A stretch of DNA of 64,000 nucleotides from positions 2,084 to 66,083 of the forward strand of contig JANTGJ010000001.1 in NCBI GenBank assembly GCA_024762975.1, given 5' to 3'. The notes beneath the pieces were generated by a model, which was not told where the DNA came from, did no database searches, and saw nothing but the letters and a program-made list of their open reading frames with translations. The position numbers were made by a program, and so were the translations under genes. This DNA is from Candidatus Krumholzibacteriia bacterium (lineage in GTDB: Bacteria; Krumholzibacteriota; Krumholzibacteriia; LZORAL124-64-63). This document shows positions 13,032-40,729 of this stretch, one piece after another (position 1 is the first letter of the stretch; each line of letters opens with the position of its first letter).

Positions 13032-14054
13032 ATGAAAACCCGTCTTCGACAGCTCGATGGACTGCGAGCAGTGGCTTTCCTGCTCGTGTTCATCCACCAC
13101 ACGCTGGATGTCAAGATGCTGTGGATTGGCGTCGACCTGTTTTTCGTGCTCAGCGGGATGCTGATCACCGGAATCCTGCTCGGCCGCCGCGAGCAGCCGT
13201 TCTACTTCCGCGATTTCTACTACCGCCGTCTGTTGCGCATCTTCCCGCCGTACCTGCTGACCCTGGTGCTCGTGCCCCTGGTGCTGAACTTCCAGTGGGA
13301 CGGGAAATGGCCGTGGTACTACGCCTACCTGTCGAATTTCCTGTCCGCCCGCGCAGCCGATGTGCATGTGGCGATGGATCCGATGTGGTCGCTGGCCATC
13401 GAAGAGCAGTTCTATCTCGTGTGGCCGTTGGTGGTGTTGTTGCTGGGGGCCGGAAGACTGCGCCGTCTCTGCTGGGTACTGATCCTGGTCGCACCGATCG
13501 TGCGCATCCTGCTTTCCTGGCAATCGGGCCATTGGCAACCGGCCTATTTCGTTACTTTCGCCCGCATGGATCTGTTGGCCGCCGGTTCGCTGCTTGCGGT
13601 CGAAAGCCGGTTGCGACCGGAAGCGTTCCGACGTTTCAGTGATCGCGGGTTGTGGCTGTCGATCGGCGCCAGCGCGGTGTTTCTCGCATTCGCGATTCTC
13701 GTGCCGGAGTTTCGGCGTACGAGCGCAGGCTGGCTCTTCGGCGGACCCGGGTACTCGTTGTTGGTCGTCATGATGGTCGGCGCGATCGCCTACTTCATGG
13801 TGCCTCGCGAGAACATTCTGTATCGGCTGCTCAGTCTGCCGCCGCTGGTGTACCTGGGTACGATCAGCTATTCGCTGTACCTGACCCACAAGATCATCAA
13901 CGAGGTACTGTATCGGCAGGGATTATCCCGGTTGCAGATTGCGGTGGCAGGTCTGGCTGCGGTCGTTCTCTGGTCGACTTTGAGCTGGTATCTGATGGAA
14001 AAACCGCTGCAGAGGTTCAAGGGGCGCTATCGCAAGAAGCTGAAAGCTGGCTAG
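13032..14054 (+). CDS. acyltransferase family 3 (OafA/YrhL-like) membrane protein
   Basis: About 10 TM helices. The N-terminus 'LDGLRAVAFLLVFIHH' and 'WSLAIEEQFY' match the Acyl_transf_3 signature. Confidence 0.7.
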   Translation: MKTRLRQLDGLRAVAFLLVFIHHTLDVKMLWIGVDLFFVLSGMLITGILLGRREQPFYFRDFYYRRLLRIFPPYLLTLVLVPLVLNFQWDGKWPWYYAYLSNFLSARAADVHVAMDPMWSLAIEEQFYLVWPLVVLLLGAGRLRRLCWVLILVAPIVRILLSWQSGHWQPAYFVTFARMDLLAAGSLLAVESRLRPEAFRRFSDRGLWLSIGASAVFLAFAILVPEFRRTSAGWLFGGPGYSLLVVMMVGAIAYFMVPRENILYRLLSLPPLVYLGTISYSLYLTHKIINEVLYRQGLSRLQIAVAGLAAVVLWSTLSWYLMEKPLQRFKGRYRKKLKAG

Positions 14055-15439
14055 TCTTCGACGACCGGCCGGTCCTTGATCTTCCGTTGCTCCTCGGTGA
14101 AGATCCGCCGCAACGTATCCAGGTCGCGATCCCGCTCTTCCGGACTTTCGGCGTTCTTCAGCGTCGACATCGAACGGCCCAGCACCTTCTTGATGAACTG
14201 CTGCAGGCTACTGTCCACGGCGGCGGCCACCTCGTCCGACTGCTTTTTGCGCACGTAGCCGACCTGTTTGTCTTTCAGCTCTTCCAGATAGGATTTGAAC
14301 TCGGCCACCGTGGGGCGAAGGTCCATCTCGTCCAGCCAGGTCTCGAACTCGCGCATCTCCTCGGCGATGATCTTCTCGGCGTATGGCACCTGCTTCTGAC
14401 GCGCGGCCTTGTTGCCCTGGATGATCTCGTCCAGGTCATCGAGGCCGAAGCTGTAGGCGCCGCTGATCCCGGCCACGTCCGGGTGGATGTCGCGCGGCAC
14501 GGCAATGTCCAGCAGGAAGAGCGGCTCGCCGCCGCGTTGCTGGACCGCCTTCTGCACCATTTCCGGCAGGATCACCGGCTCCAGGGAGCCCGTCGTACTC
14601 AGGACGACATCGGCCTCGGCGAGGGCTTCACCCAGCTCTTCCCAGGGCCGGTGCGAAACATGGCCGCATGGGTCGCTCTGCGGGCTCACGACCTCCAGAT
14701 CGGGGTCGTCGGCCGACTTGCGAGCCAACGCCGCCACGCGCTCGCCGTGCAGTTCGGCCGCCAGCTCCGCAGCTCTTGCCGGGCTACGATTGACGACCGT
14801 CAGATGCCCGATGTCATGCTGCAGGAAATGCTTCGCGGCCAACGCGCCGGTCTCGCCGGCCCCCACCAGCAGAGCTCGGTGCTGGCACAGGCGCGAGAAG
14901 AACTTGCGGGCCAGTTCGACCGCCCCGTAGGCCACGCTCACGGCTCCGCTGGTAATGCGAGTCTCGGTGCGAACCCGCTTGCCGGTGCGGAAGGCGCCCT
15001 GGAAAGCACGTAACAGCACCGGTCCCAGTTCGCTGTGCTTGCGGGCCAGGCGGTAGGCATCCTTCAACTGCTGCGAAATCTGCGGTTCGCCCAGCATCAT
15101 GCTTTCCAGCGCGGAGGCAACCCGAAACAGGTGGTTCACGGCGGGCATGCCGTCCTGCGCGACCGCATGCAGTCCGGCGAAGAGTTCGGCCTCGGCACCG
15201 ATTTCGGTCAGGGCGCGCCGAAGGCTCTGGTCGGGATCACCGCCGGGCCGCATTTCCAGATAGATCTCGGTGCGGTTGCAGGTCGAGACCGGAAGAGCCG
15301 AGACACAGGATTCTTCGGCCTCGAGCGCCTTCATCAGCGCGACGGCCTTTTCGGGGTCCAGGTGAGCCCGTTCGCGAATCTCCGTCGGCGCATGGTGATG
15401 GTTGATGCTGCGCACGTGCAGGCTGGATCGATCGCTCAT
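14051..15439 (-). CDS. hemA: glutamyl-tRNA reductase
   Basis: N-terminal 'SINHHHAP...TCNRTEIY', NADP-binding 'LLVGAGETG', and a C-terminal dimerization helix. The start was chosen at the internal ATG (MSDRSS...). The stop overlaps the stop of the convergent acyltransferase gene. Confidence 0.85.
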   Translation of the reverse strand: MSDRSSLHVRSINHHHAPTEIRERAHLDPEKAVALMKALEAEESCVSALPVSTCNRTEIYLEMRPGGDPDQSLRRALTEIGAEAELFAGLHAVAQDGMPAVNHLFRVASALESMMLGEPQISQQLKDAYRLARKHSELGPVLLRAFQGAFRTGKRVRTETRITSGAVSVAYGAVELARKFFSRLCQHRALLVGAGETGALAAKHFLQHDIGHLTVVNRSPARAAELAAELHGERVAALARKSADDPDLEVVSPQSDPCGHVSHRPWEELGEALAEADVVLSTTGSLEPVILPEMVQKAVQQRGGEPLFLLDIAVPRDIHPDVAGISGAYSFGLDDLDEIIQGNKAARQKQVPYAEKIIAEEMREFETWLDEMDLRPTVAEFKSYLEELKDKQVGYVRKKQSDEVAAAVDSSLQQFIKKVLGRSMSTLKNAESPEERDRDLDTLRRIFTEEQRKIKDRPVVED

Positions 15440-16356
15440 GTCAGCGTCCTCCTGCCTACGGTCAACACCGGGAAGAGGGCGGCTGCCGGCGCCGCCATCC
15501 CGTGGGACGAATAGAATTTGTGAAAACTCGGGAAGAAGTGCTGCACCACGCCGAGCGTGAGCAGGATCATGGCAAAGGCGAACACCGCCAGGATGTTCAT
15601 CTTCTTGCCGCGCCAACCGAGGAATCGGTTGCCGACAAGACCCACCGCATAGCCCAGGAAGATGACCCATGAGACCATGATCTTCGGATCCCAGGGGCTG
15701 AGTTGGGCTGCCATGTCGGGCTCCAGGCGCCCTCGCAGGTCATACATCCACAGATGGCCGAGGCAGAGCGAGAGGAACATCAGCGGAACGCCCATTTTGA
15801 CCGCGCCGATACTCATGCGTTCCAGTGTTTCCAGAGCCGGCAGGCGGCGAAAGAGCAGGCCGAACTGTCGGTTCATCAGTTGCCTCGTCTGCACCAGGTA
15901 CAGGATGGCATAGATGAAGCTGAGACTGAGCGCCGTGTAGGACAACAGCACGAGTACGGCGTGACCGGCGAAACCGGGATCGCGCAGAAGCGGGCTGGCA
16001 TCCGGTGCGGTGGTGCGAAAACTGGAGGCGATGAACTCCAGCAGAAAGGCCATGCCCGTTACCACGAAGCCGGTGCCCTTGGCCTTCATGCGCAATTCGA
16101 TGACCAGGTAGGTGGCCAACAGGGAAACCGCGAGCAGCGAGGCGAACTCGAGGGGCGCGCCCATGGGCAGGCGGTGTAGCGCAAAACTCTGCACCACGAC
16201 CGAGAGCACGTGTACCAGCACCGTTACGATGCCCAGGCGGGTGGACCAGCGCCGTGGGGCCGGATGATCCACCTGGAAGAGCCACAGGTAGGCTCCCCAG
16301 ACCACCAGATACATCAGGGGCAGCAGGACCTTGAACAGCGAAAGCAGGACGACCAT
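15436..16356 (-). CDS. cytochrome c assembly protein family (CcsA/HemX-like) membrane protein
   Basis: Eight-TM protein with a Trp-rich 'LSPWDPKIMVSWVIFLGYAVG' region. It sits immediately upstream of hemA with an ATGA overlap, as HemX does in Bacillus-type heme operons. Confidence 0.55.
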   Translation of the reverse strand: MVVLLSLFKVLLPLMYLVVWGAYLWLFQVDHPAPRRWSTRLGIVTVLVHVLSVVVQSFALHRLPMGAPLEFASLLAVSLLATYLVIELRMKAKGTGFVVTGMAFLLEFIASSFRTTAPDASPLLRDPGFAGHAVLVLLSYTALSLSFIYAILYLVQTRQLMNRQFGLLFRRLPALETLERMSIGAVKMGVPLMFLSLCLGHLWMYDLRGRLEPDMAAQLSPWDPKIMVSWVIFLGYAVGLVGNRFLGWRGKKMNILAVFAFAMILLTLGVVQHFFPSFHKFYSSHGMAAPAAALFPVLTVGRRTLT

Positions 16357-17840
16357 TACATCGCCTCCGGGGATGCCGCGCGCCGGGGCGCGTCTGCCAG
16401 ATAGTCCAGAACCCGATCCGCGACCGATTCGGCCTCCTTCACACAGGAGTTGACCGAGATGCCACGATACGAACTGCCGGTCAGGAACAGGCCCGGAGAT
16501 GCGGCCAGTCCGGCTTCAATTTCCTTCATGCGGGCCAGATGGCCGGGCAGGTACTGGGCGATCGCACGTTCGTGGCGGATCACACGGGCCATCTCGGGTG
16601 CTCCCTTGATTCCCATCAGGGAGCGGATCTCGGCCAGGATCAGTGTGACAAGGCCTTCGTCATCCAGGTCCATCACTCCGGGATTGCCGGCGCCGCCGGC
16701 CATGCAGCGCAGCAGAACCTTGCCCTCGGGTGTGCGCCCCGGGAAGATGCTGCTGGTCCACAGGGCGCCCAGCAGATCGCGGTTCTCGCTGCCCGGCACG
16801 AGCAGGCCGAAGCCGTCCAGATCGTGAATCACGGCGGTGCGGTCGAAACCCAAGGCGATCACGGCCATCGGCGCAAAGGGTATCAGCGACAGATGTCGGG
16901 CCACCTCACTGGAGACGCGCTCGAGGTGACCGGCGGCCGCGTGGGCGGGCGCGGCGTCGATCACGGCATCGAACGGTCCATGACCCGGGTCGGCCTCGAC
17001 GTACCAGCCGCCGTCCCGCGCGGTGATCCTGCTCACATCGGCGCCGCCGATCAGAGTCACCCTTTCGTCGGAACGCAACGTGTCGGCCAGGCCGCGAATC
17101 AGCTGATTCATACCACCTTCGAAGGAGTGCAACGTGCCGGACGGTCCGGCATCGGTTTTCGAGCGACCGGATTTTTTCTTCTCGCGGGCCAGCTTGATCA
17201 TGGCCTTGAACAGTCCGCCGTACTGCTGCTCCAGTTCGACCATGCGCGGAAAAGCCGCAGCCAGACTGAGCTGTTCGGCCTCGCCGCCGAAGATTCCCTT
17301 GACCATCGGGTCGAGCATGATGCGCGTGAACTCCGAGCCCAGCCGGCGCCGGCCGAACTCGGCGATCGTCTCGTCGGTTCCAACGTTCTCGGCCGCCTGC
17401 CCGAGGTTCTTGCGCGGCGGCACGAAGAACTCGCCGGCCATCCGGAATTTTGCCGAGGTCTTCAGCAGATCGGATTTCACGAACGCGCCGGGCGAGGTCG
17501 GAATCTCGCGCAGAGAACCATCGACCAGCAGGAAGCGGCGGCGCGCGGCATCAGCGCTGCGTTGAAGGGCATTCGTCAATCCCACCCGCTCGATGAGGCG
17601 CAGGGTGGCCGGCTCGTTGTCCAGGAAACCGTTCGGGCCCCATTCCATTTGCCAGTCGTTGTGGCGCAGTGTCCGCAGGTTGCCACCCGGCTCGGATTCC
17701 TTCTCGAATACGGTGACATGGACATTCGATCGGCGCCGTTCCGCTTCGTCCAGCAGGTCCAGGGCGGTTGCCAGCCCGGCGATTCCGCCCCCCACGATGC
17801 CCAGGCGCCATGGGTTCGTCGAAACTTCCTTCTCAGGCAT
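16356..17840 (-). CDS. hemY: protoporphyrinogen/coproporphyrinogen oxidase, FAD-dependent (HemY/PgoX family)
   Basis: FAD-binding 'LGIVGGGIAGLATA' N-terminus and PPOX-family length and architecture. The gene sits inside the heme operon. Confidence 0.8.
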   Translation of the reverse strand: MPEKEVSTNPWRLGIVGGGIAGLATALDLLDEAERRRSNVHVTVFEKESEPGGNLRTLRHNDWQMEWGPNGFLDNEPATLRLIERVGLTNALQRSADAARRRFLLVDGSLREIPTSPGAFVKSDLLKTSAKFRMAGEFFVPPRKNLGQAAENVGTDETIAEFGRRRLGSEFTRIMLDPMVKGIFGGEAEQLSLAAAFPRMVELEQQYGGLFKAMIKLAREKKKSGRSKTDAGPSGTLHSFEGGMNQLIRGLADTLRSDERVTLIGGADVSRITARDGGWYVEADPGHGPFDAVIDAAPAHAAAGHLERVSSEVARHLSLIPFAPMAVIALGFDRTAVIHDLDGFGLLVPGSENRDLLGALWTSSIFPGRTPEGKVLLRCMAGGAGNPGVMDLDDEGLVTLILAEIRSLMGIKGAPEMARVIRHERAIAQYLPGHLARMKEIEAGLAASPGLFLTGSSYRGISVNSCVKEAESVADRVLDYLADAPRRAASPEAM

Positions 17841-18936
17841 CGGTCCTCACCTCCTGTCCGGAATGCTGCGCATAGGCTTGGTGCAGAAGATGATCGGCCA
17901 GCGAATCCAGCCAGCCCGGATTCAGATTCAGCGCCGCGCCGCGGGCGTAGTCCGTGATTCCGAAAGTGGCGATCTCCTCTTTCAACTCGATGTCCAGTTC
18001 GTGCAGCGTCTCGACATGCTCACAGGTGAAACTGATCGGCTGTACGAAGACCCGGCGCACGCCGACTTGCGACAGCTGACGGATGTCCTCGGTGATTTCG
18101 GGGCCGAGCCACTTGATCGGACCGACCTTCGACTGGAATGTCAGCCGCGGTTCCGATCCGGAACCGAGTGAGTTCAGGAAGTGCTGTCCCTCGCGATCAG
18201 GGAGCCTTGCCGATACCTGATCCTGCGCCGCCTGCACGCTGGCGGTGACCTGTTCAAGGTAGGGGTCGCCTTGTCGGATGAACTTCTCCGGCAGTGAATG
18301 GGCCACAAAGAGCAGGGCACACTCGTGAGGGTCGACGCCGACGGTCGCCCAACGGCGGATCGTTGCCGCCACGGGTTCGGCCAGCGCATCGACGTAGCCC
18401 GGCAGCAGATGCCAATCGTGCACGTCATGCACCACGGCTCCGGGAGCCAGCTTTTCGATGCTGTCGCGGACGAACTTCAGCGTGCTGCCGGTGGTGGCAC
18501 AGGCGTACTGCGGGTAGGCTGGGATGACGAGGAACTGCTCGGCTCCCGCCTTGAGCAACCGCTGCACGCACTCCTGGGGGAAAGGGCGCCAGTAGCGCAT
18601 CGCAACGCCTTGGACCACGTCCAGGCCACGGTCGGTCATACGTCGTGCCGTCTCGGCTGCCTGCTGGACGGTGGTCTCCAACTGCGGCGTGGAAGAATCC
18701 TCGCTGATCATCGCGTAACGTTCGCGTACGAAGGGCGCTCGGCGTTTCGCGATCCATCGTGAAAGCAGCGGAGTCAGCAGCCGTGGAACCGGCAGGATGC
18801 AGGGATCACGGAACAGGTTGCGCAGGAACGGTTCGACTGCCTCGGGGCCGTCGGGCCCACCCATTCCGCAAAGGATCAGGCCGGTCTTGCGGGCCGGATC
18901 CAGCAGGGGTTGAGAAAGAAATCCGTTCTTGTCCAT
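17833..18936 (-). CDS. hemH: ferrochelatase
   Basis: 'LILCGMGGPDGPEAVEPFLRNLF' N-terminus, 'AHSLPEKF...QGDPY' and 'PISFTCEHVETL...ELD', all hallmark ferrochelatase motifs. Confidence 0.85.
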   Translation of the reverse strand: MDKNGFLSQPLLDPARKTGLILCGMGGPDGPEAVEPFLRNLFRDPCILPVPRLLTPLLSRWIAKRRAPFVRERYAMISEDSSTPQLETTVQQAAETARRMTDRGLDVVQGVAMRYWRPFPQECVQRLLKAGAEQFLVIPAYPQYACATTGSTLKFVRDSIEKLAPGAVVHDVHDWHLLPGYVDALAEPVAATIRRWATVGVDPHECALLFVAHSLPEKFIRQGDPYLEQVTASVQAAQDQVSARLPDREGQHFLNSLGSGSEPRLTFQSKVGPIKWLGPEITEDIRQLSQVGVRRVFVQPISFTCEHVETLHELDIELKEEIATFGITDYARGAALNLNPGWLDSLADHLLHQAYAQHSGQEVRTDA

Positions 18937-18939
18937 CGG

Positions 18940-20319
18940 TTACACCGTTTTGCTGAAGATGGGCTTGTCCGTGGGGTCGCCCAGGTAGGCGTCCAGGATC
19001 ATCGCCACGTTGCGTACGAAGTACCGGCCCTTGTCGGTAATGCGCAGACCGAAGTCGTCGCGCGTGACCAGGCCGTCCTGGATCAACGGTGGCAGGGCTT
19101 TCAGGCTGTCGGCGAAGAGTTCGTCCGCCGGCTTGCCGTAGGCCGCCCGCGTCAGTTCCCAGGGAAGCTCCAGATTGCACATGATGTTCAGGATGGCCCG
19201 TCGTCGCAGCTTGTCATCGGAGCTCAACCGGTGACCCTTGACGATGGGCAGGTCACCCGCGTCCACTTTCTGCGACCAGCCGTCGTAGGTCGCGTCGTTC
19301 TGGACGAAGCGATCGCAGACATCACCGATGCCACTCATGCCGAAGGCCAGCATGTGAGGCGCCGGCCGGGTCGCGTACCCCATGAAGTTCCGGTGCAGGG
19401 CACGTTTCTCGAGCGCGACGGAAAGTTCGTCGTCCTTGCGGGCAAAGTGGTCGATGCCGATCCAGGTGTAGTCGCGCTCCTGGAAACTGTCCACCGTCAG
19501 GCGGAAGAGCTGGAACTTGTCGTAGCCCTTGGCCATGATCGTCGTGTCGATCACTTCCTGATTCGGTCGTACCCAGGGAACGTGCGCGTACGAGAAGCAG
19601 GCCACACGGTCGGGGGCCAGGTCGATCACGCCATGGAGCGTCTCGCGAAAGCTTTCGGCCGTCTGGCCCGGCAGGCCATAGACCAGATCGAGGTTCACAC
19701 CCGGGAAACCGGCGTCGCGGCAGGCCTGGTAGATGGCCAGCGTCTTTTCACGCGACTGCATGCGCCCAATGTTCTCCTGTACGCTCTTCTCGAAGTCCTG
19801 CACGCCCAGGCTGATGCGATTGAAGCCCGACTCGCGCAGGAAGCCGACCTGGTCGGCGCTCGCGATGCGCGGGTCGACCTCGAGCGAGACTTCGGCATCG
19901 GGTGCGATGTCGAATGCGTTGCCGAACATGTTCAGGACACGTTCGATTTCGTCGTTCTTCAGGTAGTTTGGCGTGCCGCCGCCCCAGTGCAACTGCACGA
20001 CGCGGCGGCCGGTGCCGATCAGCCCGGTGACCCGCTCCACCTCCTGCTCGAGGCGGTCGAGGTAGCGCCCCACCTCTCCCTGTTCGCGTGTGACCAGCAT
20101 ATTGCAACCGCAGTAGTGGCAGGCCTTGGCGCAGAAGGGCACGTGCAGGTAGATGGCCAGTTCATCGTCTGGGCGGCCGGACAGCTCAGTCAGGGCCTCG
20201 CGGTACTCGGTCTCGCCGAATTTCTGCTTCCAGGCCGGCACCGTCGGGTAGCTCGTGTAACGAGGCCCGGCCGTGTTGTATTTCTCGACAAACTCGGCGC
20301 TGATCTCAGGGCGGGTCAT
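18940..20319 (-). CDS. hemN: oxygen-independent coproporphyrinogen III oxidase (radical SAM, bona fide HemN length)
   Basis: 'YNTAGPRYTSYPT' N-terminal motif and radical-SAM 'CAKACHYCGC'. The roughly 459-aa length includes the HemN C-terminal domain. The start is ATG 20319, in an ATGA overlap with hemE. Confidence 0.85.
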   Translation of the reverse strand: MTRPEISAEFVEKYNTAGPRYTSYPTVPAWKQKFGETEYREALTELSGRPDDELAIYLHVPFCAKACHYCGCNMLVTREQGEVGRYLDRLEQEVERVTGLIGTGRRVVQLHWGGGTPNYLKNDEIERVLNMFGNAFDIAPDAEVSLEVDPRIASADQVGFLRESGFNRISLGVQDFEKSVQENIGRMQSREKTLAIYQACRDAGFPGVNLDLVYGLPGQTAESFRETLHGVIDLAPDRVACFSYAHVPWVRPNQEVIDTTIMAKGYDKFQLFRLTVDSFQERDYTWIGIDHFARKDDELSVALEKRALHRNFMGYATRPAPHMLAFGMSGIGDVCDRFVQNDATYDGWSQKVDAGDLPIVKGHRLSSDDKLRRRAILNIMCNLELPWELTRAAYGKPADELFADSLKALPPLIQDGLVTRDDFGLRITDKGRYFVRNVAMILDAYLGDPTDKPIFSKTV

Positions 20320-21356
20320 GGGGTCTCCCTGCGATATCCCTGAACGGTCTCGACCAGCGCCTCGACGTTCGGAATCGGGGTCTGCGGCGTGATGCCGTGC
20401 CCCAGGTTGAAAACGTGTCCCCGGGCCTTGCTGCCGGTCTCGCAGATTTCCAGGGCCCGGCGCCGGATTTGATCCTGCGAACCGTACAGGGCCATCGGGT
20501 CCAGGTTGCCCTGCACGGCGTAGCCCTTCATCTGCGGCAGGAACTGCGCCATGTCCATCGTCCAGTCCATGCCCAGGCATTCGACGTCCAGGGTCGTGAC
20601 GAGATCCAGGTACGGCGCGCTCCCCTTCAGGAAGTAGATCCGCGGCACGCCCAGATCCCTCAGTCCGTCCATGATGCGCTTTACGCAGGGCAGGACGACC
20701 TTCGCGTAGTCGGCCGGATGCAGGATGCCGCCCCAGGTATCGAAGAGTTGCACCGCGTCGACGCCCGCCTCGACCTGCATGCGCAGGTAGGCCAGCGTCT
20801 GGTCCGTCAGCTTGTTCATCAGGCGGTCCAGCAACTCGGGCCGGCTGTAGAGCAGGGTCTTCAGGAAACGGTAGTCCTTCGAACCGCCGCCCTCGATGAG
20901 GTAGGTGGCCAGGGTGAAGGGCGAACCGGCGAAGCCGATCAGGGGTGTCTTGTCGCCCAGGCCTACCTTCATCAGCCGGATCGCTTCGGCAACGAAATGG
21001 GTACCGTCGGCCGCCTCGTAGGTACTGAGCGCGTCGATGTCGCTTTCGCTGCGGATCGGGCTTTCGAGCTTGGGGCCGCCCTGGGCGAAGCTGAAGCGCG
21101 CTCCCATCGGGGCCAGCGGCGTCAGAATGTCGCTGAACATGATCGCCGCGTCGAAACCAAAGCGGCGGATCGGCTGCAGCGTCACTTCACAGGCGGCCTG
21201 GGGCGTGCGGCACAACTCGTTGAACGTGTATTCCTCGCGCACCTTCATGTATTCGGGCAGGTAGCGTCCCGCCTGGCGCATGATCCAGATCGGGGTGCGG
21301 TCGCACGGCTCGCCACGGAGGTTCTTCAGAAAAATGCTTTCCTTGATATCAGCCAT
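20316..21356 (-). CDS. hemE: uroporphyrinogen decarboxylase
   Basis: 'PIWIMRQAGRYLPEY' and 'FDAAIMFSDIL' are canonical UroD motifs. Confidence 0.9.
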   Translation of the reverse strand: MADIKESIFLKNLRGEPCDRTPIWIMRQAGRYLPEYMKVREEYTFNELCRTPQAACEVTLQPIRRFGFDAAIMFSDILTPLAPMGARFSFAQGGPKLESPIRSESDIDALSTYEAADGTHFVAEAIRLMKVGLGDKTPLIGFAGSPFTLATYLIEGGGSKDYRFLKTLLYSRPELLDRLMNKLTDQTLAYLRMQVEAGVDAVQLFDTWGGILHPADYAKVVLPCVKRIMDGLRDLGVPRIYFLKGSAPYLDLVTTLDVECLGMDWTMDMAQFLPQMKGYAVQGNLDPMALYGSQDQIRRRALEICETGSKARGHVFNLGHGITPQTPIPNVEALVETVQGYRRETP

Positions 21357-21358
21357 AC

Positions 21359-22636
21359 TCAGCTCCAGCTCTTCCAGGTTGTGGCCACCGCTTCGATGGT
21401 CGTTTCGATGTCCCGGTCGGTGTGTGCAGCGCTGATGAAGCCGACTTCCCAGCCCGAGGGGGCGAGGTAGACGCCGCGCTCGATCAGGTCGCGGTGCAGG
21501 CGGCCATAGATCTCCATTTTCGAGCCGTCGACGGCCTCGACGGCGCGCGGGGCTTCGTCCTGGAACACGGTCCAGAAGAGTGACCCCTGGCGAACGACCG
21601 AAGCTGCGATGCCCTGATCGGCCGCGGCCTTCATCAGGCCCGCTTCCAGCTTTGCGCCCTTGCGCTCGAGCTCCTCGTAAAAACCGGGCTGTCCCGTCTT
21701 TTCCAGCGTGGCCAGACCCGCGGCCATGGCCACCGGGTTGCCGCTCAGCGTGCCGGCCTGGTAGACCGGGCCCAACGGCGAGATGTTGGCCATGATCCTG
21801 TTCGAAGCGGCGTAGGCGCCGACGGGAAATCCACCGCCGATGATCTTGCCGTAGGTGCCCATATCCGGCGTGATCCCCAGCACGGGGGCGGCGCCGCCTG
21901 CGCCGACACGAAAGCCGGTGATGACCTCGTCGAAAATCAGCAGGGCACCGTGCTTGGCCGTAAGATCGCGGCAGGCGCGCAGGAATTCCTCGCGCTGGAT
22001 CAGCAGTCCGGCGTTGGCCGGGAAGGGCTCGATGATCAGGGCGGCCAGTTGGTCGCCATGTTCGGCGAAGAAGGCCTCCAGCTTTTCCACGTCGTCCAGC
22101 GGCAGCACGGCCGTGCTCTCGGTGAAACCGGCCGGCACGCCGGCCGAGTCGGGTGTCGAGAAGGTGGCCAGACCACTGCCTGCGGCGACGAGCAGGTGAT
22201 CGGCGTGGCCGTGGTAGCAGCCGGTGAATTTCAGGATCAGGTCGCGGCCGGTGGCGCCTCGTGCCAGACGGATCGCACTCATCACGGCCTCGGTGCCGCT
22301 GCTGACGAAACGTACCTGTTCGAAGTGCGGCATGCGGGCCAGGAAGGCCTCGGCCAGTAGCACCTCACGGCGGCTGGGAGCACCGAAGCTGGCGCCCTCG
22401 TTCATCGCCTCGAGCGCGGCCGCGAGCACGTCCGGATCGGCGTGCCCGAGGATCAACGGGCCCCAGCTGAGGCACCAATCGATGTAGTTCTTGCCGTCTT
22501 CGTCGGTGAAGTGGCTGCCGGCCGCCTTCCGGAAGAACAGCGGATCACCAGGTACGGACTTGAACGAACGGACCGGGGAGTTCACTCCTCCCGGAAGGAC
22601 CTTCTGGGCGCGTTCCCACCACTGACGGTTACTCAT
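21359..22636 (-). CDS. hemL: glutamate-1-semialdehyde 2,1-aminomutase
   Basis: 'VLPGGVNSPVRSF', 'DWCLSWGPLILGH', 'LIFDEVITGFRV' and the PLP-lysine region 'TYGKIIGGGFPVGAY'. The start was chosen at the internal ATG (MSNRQWW), in an ATGA overlap with hemB. The upstream extension was rejected as low-complexity and Arg/Gly-rich. Confidence 0.9.
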   Translation of the reverse strand: MSNRQWWERAQKVLPGGVNSPVRSFKSVPGDPLFFRKAAGSHFTDEDGKNYIDWCLSWGPLILGHADPDVLAAALEAMNEGASFGAPSRREVLLAEAFLARMPHFEQVRFVSSGTEAVMSAIRLARGATGRDLILKFTGCYHGHADHLLVAAGSGLATFSTPDSAGVPAGFTESTAVLPLDDVEKLEAFFAEHGDQLAALIIEPFPANAGLLIQREEFLRACRDLTAKHGALLIFDEVITGFRVGAGGAAPVLGITPDMGTYGKIIGGGFPVGAYAASNRIMANISPLGPVYQAGTLSGNPVAMAAGLATLEKTGQPGFYEELERKGAKLEAGLMKAAADQGIAASVVRQGSLFWTVFQDEAPRAVEAVDGSKMEIYGRLHRDLIERGVYLAPSGWEVGFISAAHTDRDIETTIEAVATTWKSWS

Positions 22637-23610
22637 CGCTGGATCCACCCTTCCTTCAGGGCGTCCCGGCCGTGGTAGGTGATGATCTGGTCGCAGCCGG
22701 CGCGGCGGAAAGCCATCAGGTTCTCCCGGACAATCGCGCCCTCGTCGACCAGGCCGGCCTTCGCCGCGGCCTTCACCAGCGAGTACTCGCCCGAGACGTT
22801 GTAGCAGACGACCGGCGTGAGCACTTCTTCGCGCACGCGGCGGATGATGTCCAGGTAGGCCAACGCCGGCTTGACCATGACCATGTCCGCGCCCTCCTGC
22901 AGGTCCAACAGGGTTTCCAGCACAGCCTCGCGCCCGTTGCGCGGATCCATCTGATACGTCTTGCGGTCGCCCTGGGGCGCCGAATCGCAGGCGTCGCGGA
23001 AGGGGCCGTAATAGGCACTGGCGTACTTGGCGCTGTAGGCCAGGATCGCCGTGTTCACGAAGCCGTTCGAATCCAGCAATTCCCGGATCGCGCCGACGCG
23101 GCCATCCATCATGTCGCTGGGGCTGACGATATCGACGCCGGCCTCGGCGTGCGAAAGGGCCATCTTTGCCAGCTGCTCGACGCTGGGATCGTTGACCACG
23201 GTGCCGTCCTCGAGGAAACCGCAGTGGCCATGCGAAGTGTAGGCGCACAGGCAGACATCGGTGATCGAGATGATATCCGAGCCGAAGGCCTTCTTCATCG
23301 CGCGCAGCGACTGCTGTACGACGCCGTTGTCGTCCAGCGCCGCATCCCCGTGCTCGCTCTTGTCGTGAGGGATGCCGAACAGCAGATGCGACTTCAAGCC
23401 CAGCTCCAGATCGCCCTCGATCTCCTGGACCAGTTCGTCGGGCGAGACATGGAAGACGCCCGGCATCGAACCGATTTCCTCCTTGATGCCCTTGCCCTCG
23501 ACGACGAAGTGGGGCGTGATCAGGTGGCGGGCCGACACGTCGGTCTCGGCCATCATTTCGCGCAATACCGGGGTGGCGCGCAGGCGGCGCGGGCGATCCA
23601 ACAGGTTCAT
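22633..23610 (-). CDS. hemB: porphobilinogen synthase (delta-aminolevulinate dehydratase)
   Basis: 'RPRRLR', active-site lysine region 'VMVKPALAYLDI', and 'CLCAYTSHGHCG'. Confidence 0.9.
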   Translation of the reverse strand: MNLLDRPRRLRATPVLREMMAETDVSARHLITPHFVVEGKGIKEEIGSMPGVFHVSPDELVQEIEGDLELGLKSHLLFGIPHDKSEHGDAALDDNGVVQQSLRAMKKAFGSDIISITDVCLCAYTSHGHCGFLEDGTVVNDPSVEQLAKMALSHAEAGVDIVSPSDMMDGRVGAIRELLDSNGFVNTAILAYSAKYASAYYGPFRDACDSAPQGDRKTYQMDPRNGREAVLETLLDLQEGADMVMVKPALAYLDIIRRVREEVLTPVVCYNVSGEYSLVKAAAKAGLVDEGAIVRENLMAFRRAGCDQIITYHGRDALKEGWIQR

Positions 23611-24341
23611 GATTCCATCTCCGTGGGTTCCGAAGTTTCAGGTTCCGGAAGGGGGTCCAGGCCGGCGGCCCGGACCATCGCGTTCAGATCAGGGGTGACG
23701 GCGGTCCGGGTCTCGAATCCGGCCTCGCGTGCGACAATGGCCGTCGTTTCGCCGATGGCGACACAGGTGGGCCGGTCCGGCCATGCGGCGCAGAAAGCGC
23801 GCACGGTCGATGGGCTGCAAAAGAAGGGCAGGTCGCCCTCCCGCAACCGTTGCGTGGGGAGTTCGTCGGCTGGAATGGGCAACGTGCGGTAGAGCGGCAG
23901 TTCGGTCACCTCGAAGCCCTTGTCTTCAAGACTTTTGCGCGGATCAGCCATGCGCCGCTCGGGACCGGGCAACAGGACCCTTGCCGGGGAGGCAACCTGA
24001 GTTGCGAAACGCTCGGCCAGCTCGCTGCCGTCCCGGCACTCGACGTCCAGGAGATCCTTCCATCCGAATTCGGCCAGGGCGGCGCGGGTCCCGCGGCCGA
24101 GGGTGCCGATCAACACCTCCCCGGGCTCGAGTCCGGCGACCGCAAAGGCGCGAACACCCTGCGGAGAGGTGAACAGCATCCAGTCGAAATCCTCGGGATT
24201 CGGCAGCGCGTCGTGCGCGATCGCTTCGAAACGCAGCAGCGGCAGCTCCAGGACGGAGCGGCCCGCAGCGGTGAGCTGTTCAGCCCATGCCCGATTGCTC
24301 TCCTGCTGACGTGTCAGGACGATGCGCGGAGCTGGGGTCAT
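23607..24341 (-). CDS. hemD: uroporphyrinogen-III synthase
   Basis: HEM4-family size and composition ('RIVLTRQQESN', 'MLFTSPQGVRAF'). It lies between hemC and hemB with ATGA overlaps on both sides. Confidence 0.65.
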   Translation of the reverse strand: MTPAPRIVLTRQQESNRAWAEQLTAAGRSVLELPLLRFEAIAHDALPNPEDFDWMLFTSPQGVRAFAVAGLEPGEVLIGTLGRGTRAALAEFGWKDLLDVECRDGSELAERFATQVASPARVLLPGPERRMADPRKSLEDKGFEVTELPLYRTLPIPADELPTQRLREGDLPFFCSPSTVRAFCAAWPDRPTCVAIGETTAIVAREAGFETRTAVTPDLNAMVRAAGLDPLPEPETSEPTEMES

Positions 24342-25291
24342 CCCGCCTCGCTCCGGTGTTCCTGGATCCGGGTCCAGGCCGATTCGGCCACGGCTTCGGG
24401 CGAGTCGCCGTTCAGGCTCAGACGTAGGGCGTTGCTGCCCTCGGCATCGTCGGCCAGCAGCAGCTCCAGCCGGAAAATCTCGTCCGCGGCGCAAACGTTC
24501 ACACCGAAGGGCAGCTGACAGCCGCCGTCCAAACGATTCAGCAACATGCGTTCGGCGGCGACGCAGGCACCATCATCCGGGCAGTGCAACGACTGCAGCG
24601 CCTGCACCAGCTCGGTTTCCTCGCGACATTGGATCCCCAGCATTCCCTGCGCGGGGGCGGGCACGAAGGCCTCCACAGCCAGCGGCAGTACGACCAGATC
24701 GCTCAGGTCCAGTTCCAGCCGTACGACGCCGGCGCGAGCCAGCAGGATCGCATCGTAGCGGCCTTCGCGCAGCTTGCTGACGCGGGTCGGCACGTTGCCG
24801 CGCAGGTCGAGGATCTCGATGTCGGGTCGGATCAGTTTGACCTGCGCCTGACGGCGCGCTGCGCTGGTGCCCAGCTTCGCGCCCTGCTTCACCGGCAGGA
24901 CCTCTCCCCGTTCACGAGCGGCCTCGTCTACACACCCGGGTCGGATCAGCAGCGCTTCGCGCGGATCCTCGCGGCCGATCATCGCCGTGAGCGTCAGTCC
25001 TGCGGGTTGGTCGGTGGTCAAGTCCTTCAGCGAGTGTACCGCGAAGTCCACGCGGCCTTCGAGTTGTGCGTCTTCGAGTTCCTTGGTGAAGAACCCCTTG
25101 CCCTCGAGCTTGGAGAACGGGACATCGTCGATCCGGTCACCGCGGGTCTTGATGATCGTGATTTCCGTGGAAATGCCCTGCTGCTGGAGCAGGCTCTGCA
25201 CAGTATGAGCCTGCCACAGCGCAAGATCGCTGCCGCGGGTGCCGATACGCAGGATCCGGGGCTCGGATCCGGTCGAGGAAGGGTGGTTCAA
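24338..25291 (-). CDS. hemC: hydroxymethylbilane synthase (porphobilinogen deaminase)
   Basis: 'LRIGTRGSDLALWQA', 'VHSLKDL' and the cofactor-binding Cys region. TTG start at 25291 with AGGAGG 6-7 nt upstream. There is no in-frame ATG before the conserved RIGTRGS. Confidence 0.85.
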   Translation of the reverse strand: MNHPSSTGSEPRILRIGTRGSDLALWQAHTVQSLLQQQGISTEITIIKTRGDRIDDVPFSKLEGKGFFTKELEDAQLEGRVDFAVHSLKDLTTDQPAGLTLTAMIGREDPREALLIRPGCVDEAARERGEVLPVKQGAKLGTSAARRQAQVKLIRPDIEILDLRGNVPTRVSKLREGRYDAILLARAGVVRLELDLSDLVVLPLAVEAFVPAPAQGMLGIQCREETELVQALQSLHCPDDGACVAAERMLLNRLDGGCQLPFGVNVCAADEIFRLELLLADDAEGSNALRLSLNGDSPEAVAESAWTRIQEHRSEAG

Positions 25292-25440
25292 ATCGGACCT
25301 CCTGATTATCCAAGAAAGTTAGACGGTAGACTACTTTTCCACAAAGTGATTGTTGTCACGGGGTTGTCACCATTTGTGATCAAATATTTACGTGATTCGG
25401 AGGTAACTAACTATTTCACATATGAATAATGGGACAAGGA
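25292..25440. promoter_or_regulatory. AT-rich divergent control region between the hem operon and the DUF4097 gene, containing operator-like repeats
   Basis: Local GC drops sharply. 'GTGAT-TGTTGTCAC-GGGGTTGTCAC-CATTTGTGATCAAATA-TTTACGTGATTCGG' carries two direct TTGTCAC repeats, three GTGAT copies and a TGATCA palindrome. Confidence 0.35.
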
Positions 25441-25602
25441 CTGGTGATCGTTGAATATCAATATCCTGAGACGAAGTCACAGGAACGGTAAATGTGCTCT
25501 TCCGGTTGCCAATGGGGTGCCACGAAACCTTTCAGGCCGCCGGTGCGTCTACCCTCCACAACTTCTGTCGCCCCATTCATTCGTTCTTCCGGGAGGGTAT
25601 CC

Positions 25603-26670
25603 ATGTTCAGAGGCAATCGAATTGATCCCGTGTCCTTGAGACGGGTCCTGGTGCTGCTCACTCTGGCGCTGTCCTTGCTGACCGTCGCCGCCGCAACCGC
25701 TGGTGACCTGGATCCCACATTCCATATTGATGCGAAGAATCTGGCCATCAACAACCTGGTCGGGGAAGTCACCGTCACCGGTACTGCCGGTGACGAGTTT
25801 GTTGTCCAGGCCCGCGTGCGCGGCGATGACGCCGAGCCGGGTTTGATCGACTTTGTGTTGGACGAGGGTCGCAAGAGCTCGTTGAACGTGGTCTTTCCCG
25901 TCGACCAGACCCACAAGTTCGTCTATCCGGAACTGGGCAGGGGCTCGTCGACGACTTTCTCCTACCGCACGGACGAGAACGGTGACCACGATCGTTCGTG
26001 GTTGAAGAAGATCTTCTCGGGCATGAGCGGCGATCGCATCAAGGTCAGCGGCCGCGGCAGCGGCCTGGAGGTTTGGGTCGATCTGCACATCGAAGTACCG
26101 GCCGGCGCGGCGCTGACGGTCAAGAACGGCGTAGGCCGGGCATCGGCCGCGAACGTCGAGGGCGATCTTGTACTCGATACCAGCAGTGGGAGTGTGGAGG
26201 TCGAATCGATTCGCGGCAGTCTGCTGGTCGATACCGGCAGCGGTTCGGTCCAGGTGTCGGATGTGCGCGGCGATGTGCTGGTCGATACGGGCAGCGGCTC
26301 GGTGACGATCAACAGCGTGCGAGGCGAACTGAATATCGATACCGGCAGCGGTCGCGTGCAGGCCCGGCGCATCGAATCGGACTCGGCGAAGATCGATACG
26401 GGCAGCGGTTCCGTGGTGCTGGAGCTGGATCGTATCGGCAGCGGTGAGTTTGTCATCGATACGGGCAGCGGAAGTGTCCAACTGGTGCTGCCCAACGACG
26501 CTTCGGCACGCATCCAGGCCGATACCGGCAGCGGTGGTGTGAAGAACAAGGTCACCGACGCCCAGATCCGCCATCAGGAGCGCGACGAACTGGACATGAT
26601 CATTGGCAACGGCGATGCGCGTGTCATGATCGACACCGGCAGTGGTTCGGTGACGATTACCCGGCAATAA
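25603..26670 (+). CDS. secreted DUF4097-type (putative adhesin / beta-strand repeat) protein
   Basis: GGGAGGG RBS and signal peptide 'LVLLTLALSLLTVAAATA'. The C-terminal half is about 8 tandem copies of an approximately 20-aa unit, '(L/I)DTGSGSV-x-(V/L)-x-x-(V/I)RG'. Confidence 0.6.
   Translation: MFRGNRIDPVSLRRVLVLLTLALSLLTVAAATAGDLDPTFHIDAKNLAINNLVGEVTVTGTAGDEFVVQARVRGDDAEPGLIDFVLDEGRKSSLNVVFPVDQTHKFVYPELGRGSSTTFSYRTDENGDHDRSWLKKIFSGMSGDRIKVSGRGSGLEVWVDLHIEVPAGAALTVKNGVGRASAANVEGDLVLDTSSGSVEVESIRGSLLVDTGSGSVQVSDVRGDVLVDTGSGSVTINSVRGELNIDTGSGRVQARRIESDSAKIDTGSGSVVLELDRIGSGEFVIDTGSGSVQLVLPNDASARIQADTGSGGVKNKVTDAQIRHQERDELDMIIGNGDARVMIDTGSGSVTITRQ
26164..26664 (+). repeat. in-frame tandem repeats of roughly 57-63 bp encoding DTGSGSV units
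   Basis: 'GATAC(C/G)GGCAGCGG' recurs at approximately 26231, 26284, 26337, 26394, 26456, 26521 and 26629. Confidence 0.7.
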
Positions 26671-26680: not shown

Positions 26681-27094
26681 TCAGCCTTCGGCGCCTGCGG
26701 CGCGCTTGCGATCGAGCAGGTCGCGCAGGTGCCGGAGCAGGGCCTCGGGCCCGTAGGGCTTGGCCAGAAATGCGGTCCACGGATCTTCAGCCTGGTCGCG
26801 AGGGAGTCCGTTCGGGGCGAAACCTGATGTGTAGAGGATGGGCATACCCGGGCGCAGCATCCGCACGCGCCGACCGAAACGAAGCCCGCTCAATCGGGGC
26901 AACATCACATCGACGAACGCAAGATCGAAGGCATCGGGGGATCGGTGGAAGGTGTGCCAGGCATCCATGCCGTCGCGGACCGCAGTGACCCGATAGCCGG
27001 AACGGGTCAGGATCCGAACCGTGAGTTCGAGGATCGATTCTTCGTCTTCGACGACAAGGATCCGCTCGGTACCGGTCAATGTGCTCACGTGCAC
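26681..27094 (-). CDS. stand-alone response-regulator receiver domain (CheY-like)
   Basis: 'ILVVEDEESILEL', the phospho-acceptor 'FDLAFVDVMLP', and 'LYTSGF...AFLAKPY'. GTG start. No output domain. Confidence 0.7.
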   Translation of the reverse strand: MHVSTLTGTERILVVEDEESILELTVRILTRSGYRVTAVRDGMDAWHTFHRSPDAFDLAFVDVMLPRLSGLRFGRRVRMLRPGMPILYTSGFAPNGLPRDQAEDPWTAFLAKPYGPEALLRHLRDLLDRKRAAGAEG

Positions 27095-34316: not shown

Positions 34317-34723
34317 ATTTACCCGATTCGAATGGGCCTATAACAGGCGACTAACATCGCTCGTCTATCCTGCTCGTGTTCTCGCTGGAGTTCCAGGAGG
34401 ACCGAACACGGGCGACCGAAATTTGAATCATTCTTTCGTCGGACCGCCCCTCGGTAGACCGCTCATCCGGCTGAACAACAACCAAGGTTGGGTTTCGAAA
34501 TGATGGTCTTGGCTGGACCGGATCTTCGAGGGCCGGATTCCCCGGCGCCCGGCCGCCCTTGACCGTGACAACCACCTGAGCCCGTTCGCTGGTAGTCCAC
34601 ATTTGACACTGTTCAGCTTGGACGAGGAATCGCACATCACGAGCCATCGATGATCCTGGGGCGGCGTCATTCCGCCGTCGTCGCCCCCATCGACGCCTTC
34701 AGCTTCTTGAGGAGTGAGATCCA

Positions 34724-36433: not shown

Positions 36434-36506
36434 GACAGCCTTTGCCGGGCAACCGCAAGACAACAGGATCTGCATCCTGAAGGACAACAGAACGCTGCAT
36501 CACACA

Positions 36507-36545
36507 GGCCCGGCCCCGCACGGGGGCCGGGCCTTCTTCAACTTC
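36507..36545 (+). terminator. rho-independent terminator downstream of the T9SS-CTD gene
   Basis: GGCCCGGCCCC-gcacg-GGGGCCGGGCC, an 11-bp perfect stem, followed by TTCTTCAACTTC. Confidence 0.6.
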
Positions 36546-36841
36546 TCTCCGGCCCCCTGGGACTTCCCGATTGAAGCTCTTCCCGCAAAAATCCATTTCG
36601 AACCTCGATTCCGATTCTTGTTCCGGGGACTGGGGTCGGCCGCCAATCGGCCATCGGGCAAGCCGGGGAGGCCCGGTAAAAAATCCCGACCAGGAGGAAC
36701 GAAATCCTTCTCCGCCTCAAATTCCCTCACCGTTGCTGCGCTGAAACTAACCTCTTCTTTACGAAGCCCACGCATCGCTCTAACCCGCCTCGTGTAATTT
36801 CGTCAACGATCAAACATCCCGAGTCCGCCGAGGAGGTCCCC

Positions 36842-39018: not shown

Positions 39019-39022
39019 AGCC

Positions 39023-40703: not shown

Positions 40704-40729
40704 CCAGCAATCCGATCGGAGATCGCATC

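Follow-up and report, generated by a model that had tools for sequence, protein, structure and literature searches.

Large heme biosynthesis operons are already known from Bacillus, Chloroflexus, Roseiflexus and Leptospira. The operon of Chloroflexus aurantiacus comprises seven genes in the order hemA-C-D-B-E-L-F (PMC3150298), while that of Roseiflexus also includes hemY (PMC4231631). In Leptospira, the hemACBLENG operon is complemented by a hemH located on the opposite strand, and the HemK/HemR two-component system controls heme biosynthesis through the binding of phospho-HemR to a hem-box (PMC11426443, PMC2266917). In Bacillus subtilis and Staphylococcus aureus the genes form the hemAXCDBL and hemEHY operons, with a CcsA-like hemX beside hemA.

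The locus described here lies in a window of 64,000 nucleotides (the whole stretch of DNA analyzed) from a Krumholzibacteriota-like bacterium, and contains ten genes in the order hemC-D-B-L-E-N-H-Y-X-A, all running in the same direction on the minus strand from 25291 to 14051. They encode nine heme-making enzymes and one membrane protein (HemX), and curated HMMs (NCBIfam/Pfam thresholds) confirm both gene identities and order, in agreement with the earlier note, which had placed all steps from glutamyl-tRNA to heme in one co-directional block. The trunk enzymes HemA, HemL, HemB, HemC, HemD and HemE all score above the curated thresholds, and the HemA product contains the three GluTR Pfam domains. 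The start codon of hemC is TTG, which is kept in most relatives, the corresponding alignment columns being nearly invariant. The features of the block are as follows:

25298..25303, minus strand: Shine-Dalgarno sequence AGGAGG for hemC, with GGAGG conserved in relatives
24338..25291, minus strand: hemC, hydroxymethylbilane synthase (TIGR00212, 274 bits, cut-off 164)
23607..24341, minus strand: hemD, uroporphyrinogen-III synthase (PF02602, 115 bits, cut-off 27.5)
22633..23610, minus strand: hemB, porphobilinogen synthase (NF006762, 461 bits, cut-off 297)
21359..22636, minus strand: hemL, glutamate-1-semialdehyde 2,1-aminomutase (NF000818, 581 bits, cut-off 398)
20316..21356, minus strand: hemE, uroporphyrinogen decarboxylase (TIGR01464, 400 bits, cut-off 302.95)
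18940..20319, minus strand: hemN, oxygen-independent coproporphyrinogen III oxidase, CgdH (TIGR00538, 496 bits, cut-off 324.95)
17833..18936, minus strand: hemH, ferrochelatase, predicted protoporphyrin type (TIGR00109, 217 bits, cut-off 124.6)
16356..17840, minus strand: hemY, protoporphyrinogen oxidase, PgoX-like (TIGR00562, 283 bits, cut-off 97.85)
15436..16356, minus strand: hemX, CcsA-family membrane protein (PF01578, 86 bits, cut-off 29.9)
14051..15439, minus strand: hemA, glutamyl-tRNA reductase, the final gene of the block (TIGR01035, 355 bits, cut-off 209.55)

Relative to the described systems this block is unusually complete, and the earlier view that such consolidation is uncommon is a fair one, given that the published Chloroflexus, Roseiflexus and Leptospira operons are partial. 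The Chloroflexus and Roseiflexus versions resemble it in being large, co-directional and inclusive of most of the pathway (PMC3150298; PMC4231631). However, in Chloroflexus the operon begins with hemA and includes neither hemH nor hemX, and about 2000 genes separate it from hemN and hemY, whereas the present block unites all nine enzymes with hemX and has hemA last. The Bacillus and Staphylococcus operons contain the same gene families, and the gene orders C-D-B-L and E-H-Y within them recur here. The differences are the fusion into one block, the placement of X-A at the 3' end with X before A, the insertion of hemN between hemE and hemH, and terminal enzymes that appear to be of the protoporphyrin rather than the coproporphyrin type, with no ChdC in the window.

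The genes are packed with only 5 non-coding bases across 11,241 bp, seven of the junctions being overlaps (-1 to -8 nt) and two being gaps of 2-3 nt, and AGGAGG/GGAG motifs are found 5' of most internal starts. The junctions are listed below (distances in nt, negative values denoting overlap):

C/D: -4 nt, ATGA
D/B: -4 nt, ATGA
B/L: -4 nt, ATGA
L/E: +2 nt, gap
E/N: -4 nt, ATGA
N/H: +3 nt, gap
H/Y: -8 nt, overlap
Y/X: -1 nt, TAATG
X/A: -4 nt, ATGA

The overlaps previously proposed at C/D, D/B, B/L and X/A were all recovered, each as an ATGA, as was the 8-nt overlap of hemY and hemH. An overlap also exists at Y/X, with the sequence TAATG instead of the TGATG that had been claimed, and the overlap formerly given as N/E is indeed an ATGA, its proper direction being hemE followed by hemN. 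By rough gene calls, about 12 of the 27 other same-strand neighbor pairs in the window also lie within 4 nt, and tight junctions are therefore ordinary in this DNA; the outstanding feature is the unbroken run of nine such junctions spanning the whole pathway.

Comparison across related genomes showed that the ten-gene order recurs in the lineage. More than 20 related genomes from metagenomes, most of them labeled Krumholzibacteriota, share this order and the tight junctions. Among them are seven with all ten genes in order (L001, L002, L008, L011, L014, L020 and L021) alongside partial contigs, and in L053 and L054 the ten-gene order is also borne out by gene calls made independently by ENA and JGI. 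The arrangement is therefore a conserved trait of this whole uncultured, Krumholzibacteriota-like lineage and no peculiarity of a single genome. The relatives keep the overlaps at D/B, H/Y, Y/X and X/A, and the L/E, E/N and N/H junctions open to small positive gaps of up to about 20-30 nt. The genes flanking the block vary among these genomes, while the block itself is conserved.

Taken together, we favor, with a probability of roughly 80%, a single polycistronic operon of about 11.3 kb encoding the whole protoporphyrin-dependent heme pathway. The genes are co-directional, stand too close together to accommodate internal promoters or terminators and keep their order across genomes, which points to a single transcript, and the overlapping junctions suggest translational coupling across the block. 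The block could instead be transcribed as two or three separate units (hemCDBL, hemENHY and hemXA) from promoters inside coding sequence, as remnants of separate Bacillus-type operons; we consider this unlikely, even though CDBL and E(N)HY match the internal order of the Bacillus hemAXCDBL and hemEHY operons, and the junctions that loosen in relatives are L/E, E/N and N/H. The gaps are just 2-3 nt in the window, and in the relatives they would not accommodate a promoter together with a terminator. No conserved non-coding element occurs apart from that upstream of hemC, and the operon strand lacks convincing terminators: the cluster has one weak terminator-like hairpin on this strand (23844-23828), and the total of 5 terminator-like sites is below the 8 expected from shuffles. 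A scan of the operon strand inside the cluster with the sigma-70 consensus, which may not be that of the host phylum, likewise found no consensus internal promoter.

The earlier proposal of a protoporphyrin-dependent route is supported by the true HemN, the type of HemH, the similarities of HemY and the lack of ChdC in the window. That HemN is bona fide holds up well, as it passes the HemN equivalog TIGR00538 and fails the HemW model (TIGR00539, 128 bits versus a cut-off of 205), and its translation contains the CxxxCxxCxC motif (PFCAKACHYCGCN) as well as the segment GPRYTSYPT at the N-terminus. HemH aligns with human protoporphyrin ferrochelatase (PpfC), its closest solved structure, at 150 bits, versus about 70 bits (maximum 72) with the coproporphyrin ferrochelatases (CpfC) of Bacillus and Listeria, and its M25 and R114/Y115 align with human Met76 and Arg164/Tyr165. 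Assignment to the CpfC type was accordingly rejected, and the substrate is probably protoporphyrin; the translation is without the C-terminal cysteine cluster for a [2Fe-2S] center. HemY has Myxococcus xanthus PgoX (PDB: 2IVD) as its closest solved structure, and its similarity to this protein (291 bits, versus 223 bits to B. subtilis CgoX) suggests a preference for the PgoX activity; the activities of both HemY and HemH are predictions from such comparisons.

A coproporphyrin-dependent or hybrid route would require HemY to be a CgoX, HemH a CpfC, ChdC to be encoded elsewhere and the apparent HemN to be a HemW-like heme chaperone or to have another role. Such a combination is very improbable. 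It draws on the order of the E-(N)-H-Y sub-block, which is that of the Bacillus hemEHY operon, ascribed to the coproporphyrin pathway in work cited in PMC4231631, and on the 223 bits that HemY still scores with CgoX. The scores of HemN against the two models (496 bits versus 325 for the HemN equivalog, as against the failure of the HemW model) speak against it, as does the fact that all relatives have hemN between hemE and hemH. HemH scores about 80 bits higher with human PpfC than with any CpfC, and it has Met and Arg-Tyr at the sites where B. subtilis CpfC has Tyr13 and Lys87-His88. Furthermore, as the earlier note had stated for ChdC/HemQ, no match to the ChdC/chlorite-dismutase family was found among the 49 genes called in the window, and the precomputed Pfam calls show none in the L053 and L054 flanks.

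HemX is a polytopic membrane protein of the CcsA family, and its counterpart in close relatives is annotated by JGI as 'HemX protein'; a true CcsA/CcsB was rejected, as the CcsB model TIGR03144 gives 80 bits, below its cut-off of 187.6. The HemX family colocalizes with hemA (gtrR) across phyla, and in Bacillus and Staphylococcus HemX lowers the abundance of HemA (GtrR) (PMC5801465). The same colocalization is seen here, where hemX overlaps hemA by an ATGA; nearly all relatives in which this junction is measurable keep the distance of -4 nt. By analogy with the Bacillus and Staphylococcus proteins, this HemX may likewise restrain HemA.

The sole conserved non-coding element of the locus precedes hemC, and consists of a direct repeat, a 20-nt interval, a TAnnnT hexamer, GGAGG and the TTG start:

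25354..25369, minus strand: direct repeat TGACAACCCCGTGACA, TGACA-N6-TGACA with an 11-bp period (exact match, conserved in relatives)
25328..25333, minus strand: -10-like hexamer TAGTCT (TAnnnT), following the repeat at a distance of exactly 20 nt, with a putative promoter role

The repeat precedes hemC by about 62 nt, and an exact match is expected 0.41 times by chance in the window. It is present at a fixed position in 12 of 13 genomes, with a single copy per 21-kb locus; the relatives having it in the same place upstream of hemC are L001, L002, L005, L008, L010, L011, L014, L042, L048, L053 and L054, and it is missing from the complete but divergent cluster of L021. In the upstream alignment the columns of TGAC and TGACA show no variation, the remainder being 49% identical. 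In the hexamer, the leading TA and the last T are nearly invariant, with TATAAT in L001, TAAACT in L002, TAGTCT in L010 and L011, TAGCTT in L014, TAGAAT in L053 and TACAAT in L054, all at the same spacing.

The Leptospira hem-box, to which phospho-HemR binds upstream of the hemA operon, has the consensus TGACA[N6]TGACA (PMC11426443), and the window repeat (25369-25354) matches it exactly, suggesting that a single regulated promoter serves the entire pathway. The repeat is hence a candidate operator for an OmpR/PhoB-type regulator. The likeness to Leptospira, a consolidated heme operon preceded by this sequence, extends between unrelated phyla (Spirochaetes versus an FCB-group candidate phylum). 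L. interrogans has hemKR inside its cluster, whereas here two-component genes are not found nearby and HemR-type binding is a prediction.

The repeat might instead be a core promoter element particular to this lineage, or it might be bound by an unrelated regulator that responds to phosphate, redox state or iron; this is a serious contender, to which we give somewhat less than even odds. Many OmpR-family regulators bind 11-bp-spaced repeats, the repeat core is also the reverse complement of the Pho-box core, CTGTCA, and TGACA is similar to a -35 hexamer. No HemK/HemR genes were found nearby, and no OmpR-type DNA-binding regulator is encoded in the window or any fetched flank. Nevertheless, the consensus is matched exactly and in the same functional setting, ahead of an operon for heme biosynthesis, both half-sites are kept at a fixed distance from the -10-like hexamer, and each 21-kb locus has only the one copy. 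A plain -35 element would sit 3 nt too far from the hexamer at a distance of 20 nt, and the GC-rich spacers of the repeat are unlike those of Pho boxes.

Under the single-operon reading with a HemR-like operator, transcription would begin at one promoter 5' of hemC, its -35 region occupied by the tandem repeat, with the TAnnnT element as its -10, and the repeat would most likely be bound by a winged-helix response regulator of the OmpR/PhoB type. Ribosomes would be handed from gene to gene where stop and start codons overlap or abut, mostly with internal Shine-Dalgarno sequences. HemA and HemL would convert glutamyl-tRNA to ALA, HemB, HemC and HemD would take it to uroporphyrinogen III, and HemE to coproporphyrinogen III. 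HemN, as a radical-SAM, oxygen-independent enzyme, would then yield protoporphyrinogen IX, the flavin oxidase HemY protoporphyrin IX, and HemH heme. HemA, the committed and rate-limiting enzyme, would be made last and coupled to HemX, so that the downstream enzymes could be available before flux starts.

Downstream of the block, the hemA stop overlaps that of a convergent gene, as had been noted, the two sharing the palindrome CTAG at 14051-14054:

13071..14054, plus strand: Acyl_transf_3 gene (PF01757), context only and outside the system

This neighbor is not conserved beside the cluster in the relatives, and the lack of room for a terminator stressed in the earlier note is peculiar to this genome and of no evident significance. 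The window also contains a cbb3 oxidase cluster. This is consistent with a demand for heme, and also with the low-oxygen conditions that would be needed by a HemY using O2.

The ten heme biosynthesis genes occupy consecutive positions on the minus strand and span 14051-25291 (11,241 bp), as delineated from the longest open reading frames and curated HMM libraries, with start codons set by where the HMM alignments begin. Each gene matches the family for which the earlier note had named it from the sequence, and the co-directional order proposed there, hemC-D-B-L-E-N-H-Y-X-A with hemA last, is borne out.

Genes of the heme block in their order on the minus strand, with matching family model and score
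hemC: TIGR00212, 274 bits
hemD: PF02602, 115 bits
hemB: NF006762, 461 bits
hemL: NF000818, 581 bits
hemE: TIGR01464, 400 bits
hemN: TIGR00538, 496 bits
hemH: TIGR00109, 217 bits
hemY: TIGR00562, 283 bits
hemX: PF01578, 86 bits; CcsA-family membrane protein
hemA, 14051-15439: TIGR01035, 355 bits

The whole block contains five non-coding bases, the junction distances being C/D -4, D/B -4, B/L -4, L/E +2, E/N -4, N/H +3, H/Y -8, Y/X -1 and X/A -4 nt, and most internal starts are preceded by a GGAG or AGGAGG lying within the preceding gene. The overlaps previously claimed at C/D, D/B, B/L and X/A, as well as that of 8 nt between hemH and hemY, stand; the Y/X junction reads TAATG rather than TGATG, and the overlap described as N/E is indeed one of 4 nt, with hemE preceding hemN. 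The tetranucleotide CTAG at 14051-14054 is shared by the stop codons of hemA and of an acyltransferase (Acyl_transf_3) gene converging on it, again as claimed. About 12 of the 27 other same-strand gene pairs in the window are likewise no more than 4 nt apart; hence the coupling in the heme block is ordinary for this genome, and what is unusual is the unbroken run of such junctions over an entire pathway. Pfam matches to the NADPH-binding (Shikimate_DH) domain of HemA fall into two stretches, apparently separated by an insert of about 30 residues, approximately KSADDPDLEVVSPQSDPCGHVSHRPWEE, at roughly residues 230-265.

Comparisons of the three late enzymes point to the type of pathway encoded. 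HemN scores above the HemN equivalog threshold and below that of the HemW model, and carries the four-cysteine PFCAKACHYCGCN motif together with an N-terminal GPRYTSYPT segment. Against solved structures, HemH scores 150 bits with the human protoporphyrin ferrochelatase (PpfC), versus 42-72 bits with the coproporphyrin ferrochelatases (CpfC) of Bacillus, Listeria and others listed. Its M25 and R114/Y115 align with human Met76 and Arg164/Tyr165, positions at which the B. subtilis CpfC has Tyr13 and Lys87/His88. HemY scores 291 bits with the protoporphyrinogen oxidase (PgoX) of Myxococcus xanthus versus 223 bits with the coproporphyrinogen oxidase (CgoX) of B. subtilis, a closer likeness which supports the prediction that it oxidizes protoporphyrinogen. 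None of the 49 genes called in the window matches the chlorite-dismutase/coproheme decarboxylase (ChdC) family, as the earlier note had observed. Taken together, these observations support the protoporphyrin-dependent reading advanced there, and the lineage is accordingly predicted from its protein sequences to make heme by that route, using an O2-independent HemN and an O2-dependent HemY. The cbb3-type cytochrome oxidase cluster also encoded in the window would suit a microaerobic organism in which the O2-requiring HemY works beside HemN, and the pairing itself agrees with such a lifestyle.

Features of the cbb3-type cytochrome oxidase cluster (53348-61740, plus strand)
53348-55816, plus strand: CcoI-like P-type ATPase
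55807-56058, plus strand: small ORF at the ccoS position, with no family match
56128-58572, plus strand: fused CcoN-CcoO protein of 814 aa
between the CcoN-CcoO fusion and CcoP, plus strand: 86-aa ORF
58837-59433, plus strand: CcoP
59426-60811, plus strand: CcoG/FixG
61027-61740, plus strand: multiheme cytochrome c

Relatives were gathered by a HemN search, with one genome per species, so that the survey covers the close relatives of this HemN. The nearest of these (68-82% identity) are metagenome-assembled, and most bear the label Candidatus Krumholzibacteriota/Krumholzibacteriia. When their loci were searched with the ten window proteins by tblastn, the order C-D-B-L-E-N-H-Y-X-A proved identical in every relative with a long enough contig, comprising seven complete copies and about a dozen more broken off only at contig ends; these ten genes also appear in the independent ENA and JGI gene calls for two further genomes (L053 and L054). 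The junctions in relatives are also tight, typically -17 to +23 nt, and the D/B, H/Y, Y/X and X/A overlaps are kept almost everywhere. The genes flanking the block differ among relatives, except for a DUF4097 gene in L001 and L054, so that the convergent acyltransferase is an incidental neighbour in this one genome. A more distant locus (L022, 52% HemN identity) has E-N-H-Y only, and the proteobacterial and Bacteroidota matches have hemN alone. Exact-sequence look-ups of the window proteins matched only short Logan contigs from SRR19843167. Five loci (L001, L007, L016, L018 and L049) have heme genes 70-82% identical to those of the window, yet are labelled Gemmatimonadales, Polarisedimenticola (Acidobacteriota), Planctomycetota/Pirellulales or Fibrobacteraceae, which most likely reflects mis-binning or inconsistent taxonomy. 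In L016 and L018, hemN is followed by hemY at a distance of about 480 nt, without hemH between them.

Bacillus and Staphylococcus have hemAXCDBL plus hemEHY, and the block looks like the two Bacillus operons fused and rotated, i.e. C-D-B-L, E-(N)-H-Y and X-A. Other known arrangements include the Chloroflexus operon hemA-C-D-B-E-L-F, from which hemN and hemY are remote (PMC3150298), the Roseiflexus operon, which includes hemY (PMC4231631), and the Leptospira hemACBLENG, with hemH oppositely transcribed (PMC11426443; PMC2266917). None of the arrangements read in the literature brings all nine enzymes and hemX into a single co-directional unit, as the present block does. A text search of the literature found no description of a single operon with all these genes, and the papers found on Krumholzibacteriota and heme do not, by their titles and abstracts, deal with this cluster. 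The block is thus an unusually complete variant of a known operon type, conserved across an uncultured lineage. Its enzymes all belong to well-known families, so that nothing in the biochemistry is novel; the unusual part is the organization, in which a whole pathway and its post-translational restrainer lie almost without gaps in one conserved block behind one conserved regulatory site, throughout a candidate phylum without cultured members.

This site lies in the AT-rich, 338-nt region upstream of hemC. Among the relatives, the direct repeat TGAC(N)-N6-TGACA in this region is invariant, and so, very nearly, is a TAnnnT hexamer that follows it at a distance of exactly 20 nt; the GGAGG Shine-Dalgarno sequence and the TTG start codon of hemC are conserved as well, the remainder being about 49% identical.

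Conserved elements upstream of hemC in the window
25369-25354, minus strand: TGACA-N6-TGACA direct repeat, TGACAACCCCGTGACA
25333-25328, minus strand: -10-like hexamer TAGTCT
25289-25291, minus strand: hemC TTG start codon

The repeat pattern, with a chance expectation of 0.41 matches per 64 kb, occurs once per locus of about 21 kb and always upstream of hemC, in the window and in 11 related loci (L001, L002, L005, L008, L010, L011, L014, L042, L048, L053 and L054), with the TAnnnT hexamer 20 nt on; it is absent only from L021, the most divergent complete cluster. In most genomes 60-63 nt separate the end of the repeat from the hemC start. The repeat, a putative operator, and the -10-like element at a fixed distance from it are a new observation and supply a concrete regulatory hypothesis that can be tested. 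In PhoB/OmpR promoters, a direct repeat with 11-bp spacing, situated 3 nt upstream of the usual -35 position, is the typical activator-dependent layout bound by a tandem winged-helix regulator, and by this analogy the layout upstream of hemC appears to match such a promoter. Scanning 13500-26000 with the sigma-70 consensus brought up no promoter for the operon strand within the cluster, and terminator-like hairpins were fewer than in shuffled sequences. An Rfam scan of the whole window returned no known RNA family, and hence no known riboswitch or leader upstream of hemC; no tRNAs were found in the window. A sigma-54-like sequence, TGGCACCCCATTGGCA (25522-25507, minus strand), precedes hemC by 231 nt but recurs in none of the relatives, and with roughly one such match expected by chance in the window it is probably a chance occurrence. 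The TTG start of hemC follows a strong GGAGG in the window and nearly all relatives, being replaced by GTG in L001; with so weak a start conserved on its first gene, the operon may be held to a limited rate of translation. L008 alone has a 5' leader extended by about 36 nt, owing to a tandem repeat of about 12 nt, cacttgatccag, that has been inserted (4930-5000) after the box/-10 region and ahead of the hemC start.

Descriptions of a HemKR-like two-component system that senses ALA or porphyrins are, to our knowledge, so far confined to Leptospira. The consensus of the repeat upstream of hemC coincides exactly with TGACA[N6]TGACA, the hem-box published for Leptospira. That box is bound by phosphorylated HemR, an OmpR/PhoB-like protein, upstream of the hemA operon, hmuO and exbB1/D1 (PMC11426443; cf. 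PMC2266917). No OmpR-type DNA-binding regulator was found in the window or in any flank of the relatives' loci, a tblastn search of these with E. coli PhoB retrieving receiver domains only; the proposed link to HemR is therefore one of likeness in sequence and context. A PDB search with PhoB yielded no HemR entry among the 60 matches listed. Elsewhere in the window, TGAC-N7-TGACA has one further exact match (55186-55201), which, like the one-mismatch hem-box matches, falls within coding sequence at chance frequency; the two-mismatch matches lying between genes around TonB/ExbBD do not convince. Leptospira has its exbBD genes in the HemR regulon, but those of the window show no convincing hem-box upstream.

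TonB/ExbBD region of the window
31563-41980, plus strand: TonB-dependent receptor with a carboxypeptidase-regulatory-like N-terminal domain, Por-secretion-tail protein, DUF3450 protein, two ExbB, ExbD, TonB and a TPR protein

The window also has, 1.4 kb upstream of the operon and on its strand, a gene (26681-27094, minus strand) for a response-regulator receiver protein of 137 aa that stands alone, without an output domain; an opposite-strand DUF4097 gene lies between this gene and the operon. In L001, too, a receiver-domain match precedes the heme genes, at 965-1300.

HemX scores 80 bits against the CcsB model, well under its cut-off of 187.6, and its close relatives are named 'HemX protein' by JGI. 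In S. aureus, HemX reduces the abundance of glutamyl-tRNA reductase, and hemX co-occurs and colocalizes with gtrR (hemA) across phyla and all three heme pathways (Choby et al., PMC5801465); the hemX-hemA pair is hence a known association. The present pair is set apart from those known by hemX coming first, overlapping hemA through ATGA, and by the pair's place at the 3' end of the block. In the proposed working of the operon, a single promoter regulated through the upstream repeat would give one long mRNA, on which the stop-start overlaps would couple translation and thereby fix the enzyme ratios. With HemA, the enzyme of the committed step, placed last and coupled to HemX, which restrains it, downstream capacity might be ready before flux, and fewer toxic porphyrin intermediates would then be formed. 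Tentatively, with a probability of about 0.3, we suggest that a HemKR-like system, or an analogous OmpR/PhoB regulator acting on the same TGACA-N6-TGACA box, may run the entire heme pathway from one promoter in an uncultured phylum of the FCB group, that the block would then be a self-contained, single-switch 'heme cassette', and that its first-enzyme-last order, coupled to HemX, would have been selected against the build-up of toxic porphyrin intermediates. If this reading of the box is true, hem-box regulation would extend past the spirochetes, a lead open to testing. At 11.2 kb and with what appears to be one promoter, the block also offers a compact natural template for heme-pathway engineering and a clean system in which to ask why the committed step stands last in the gene order.

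Apart from the heme genes, the window encodes a 1597-aa protein (44227-49020, plus strand) that combines UvrA DNA-binding domains with several modules of the ABC ATPase type; being roughly twice as long as a normal UvrA, it resembles a UvrA paralogue that has been fused or duplicated in tandem.
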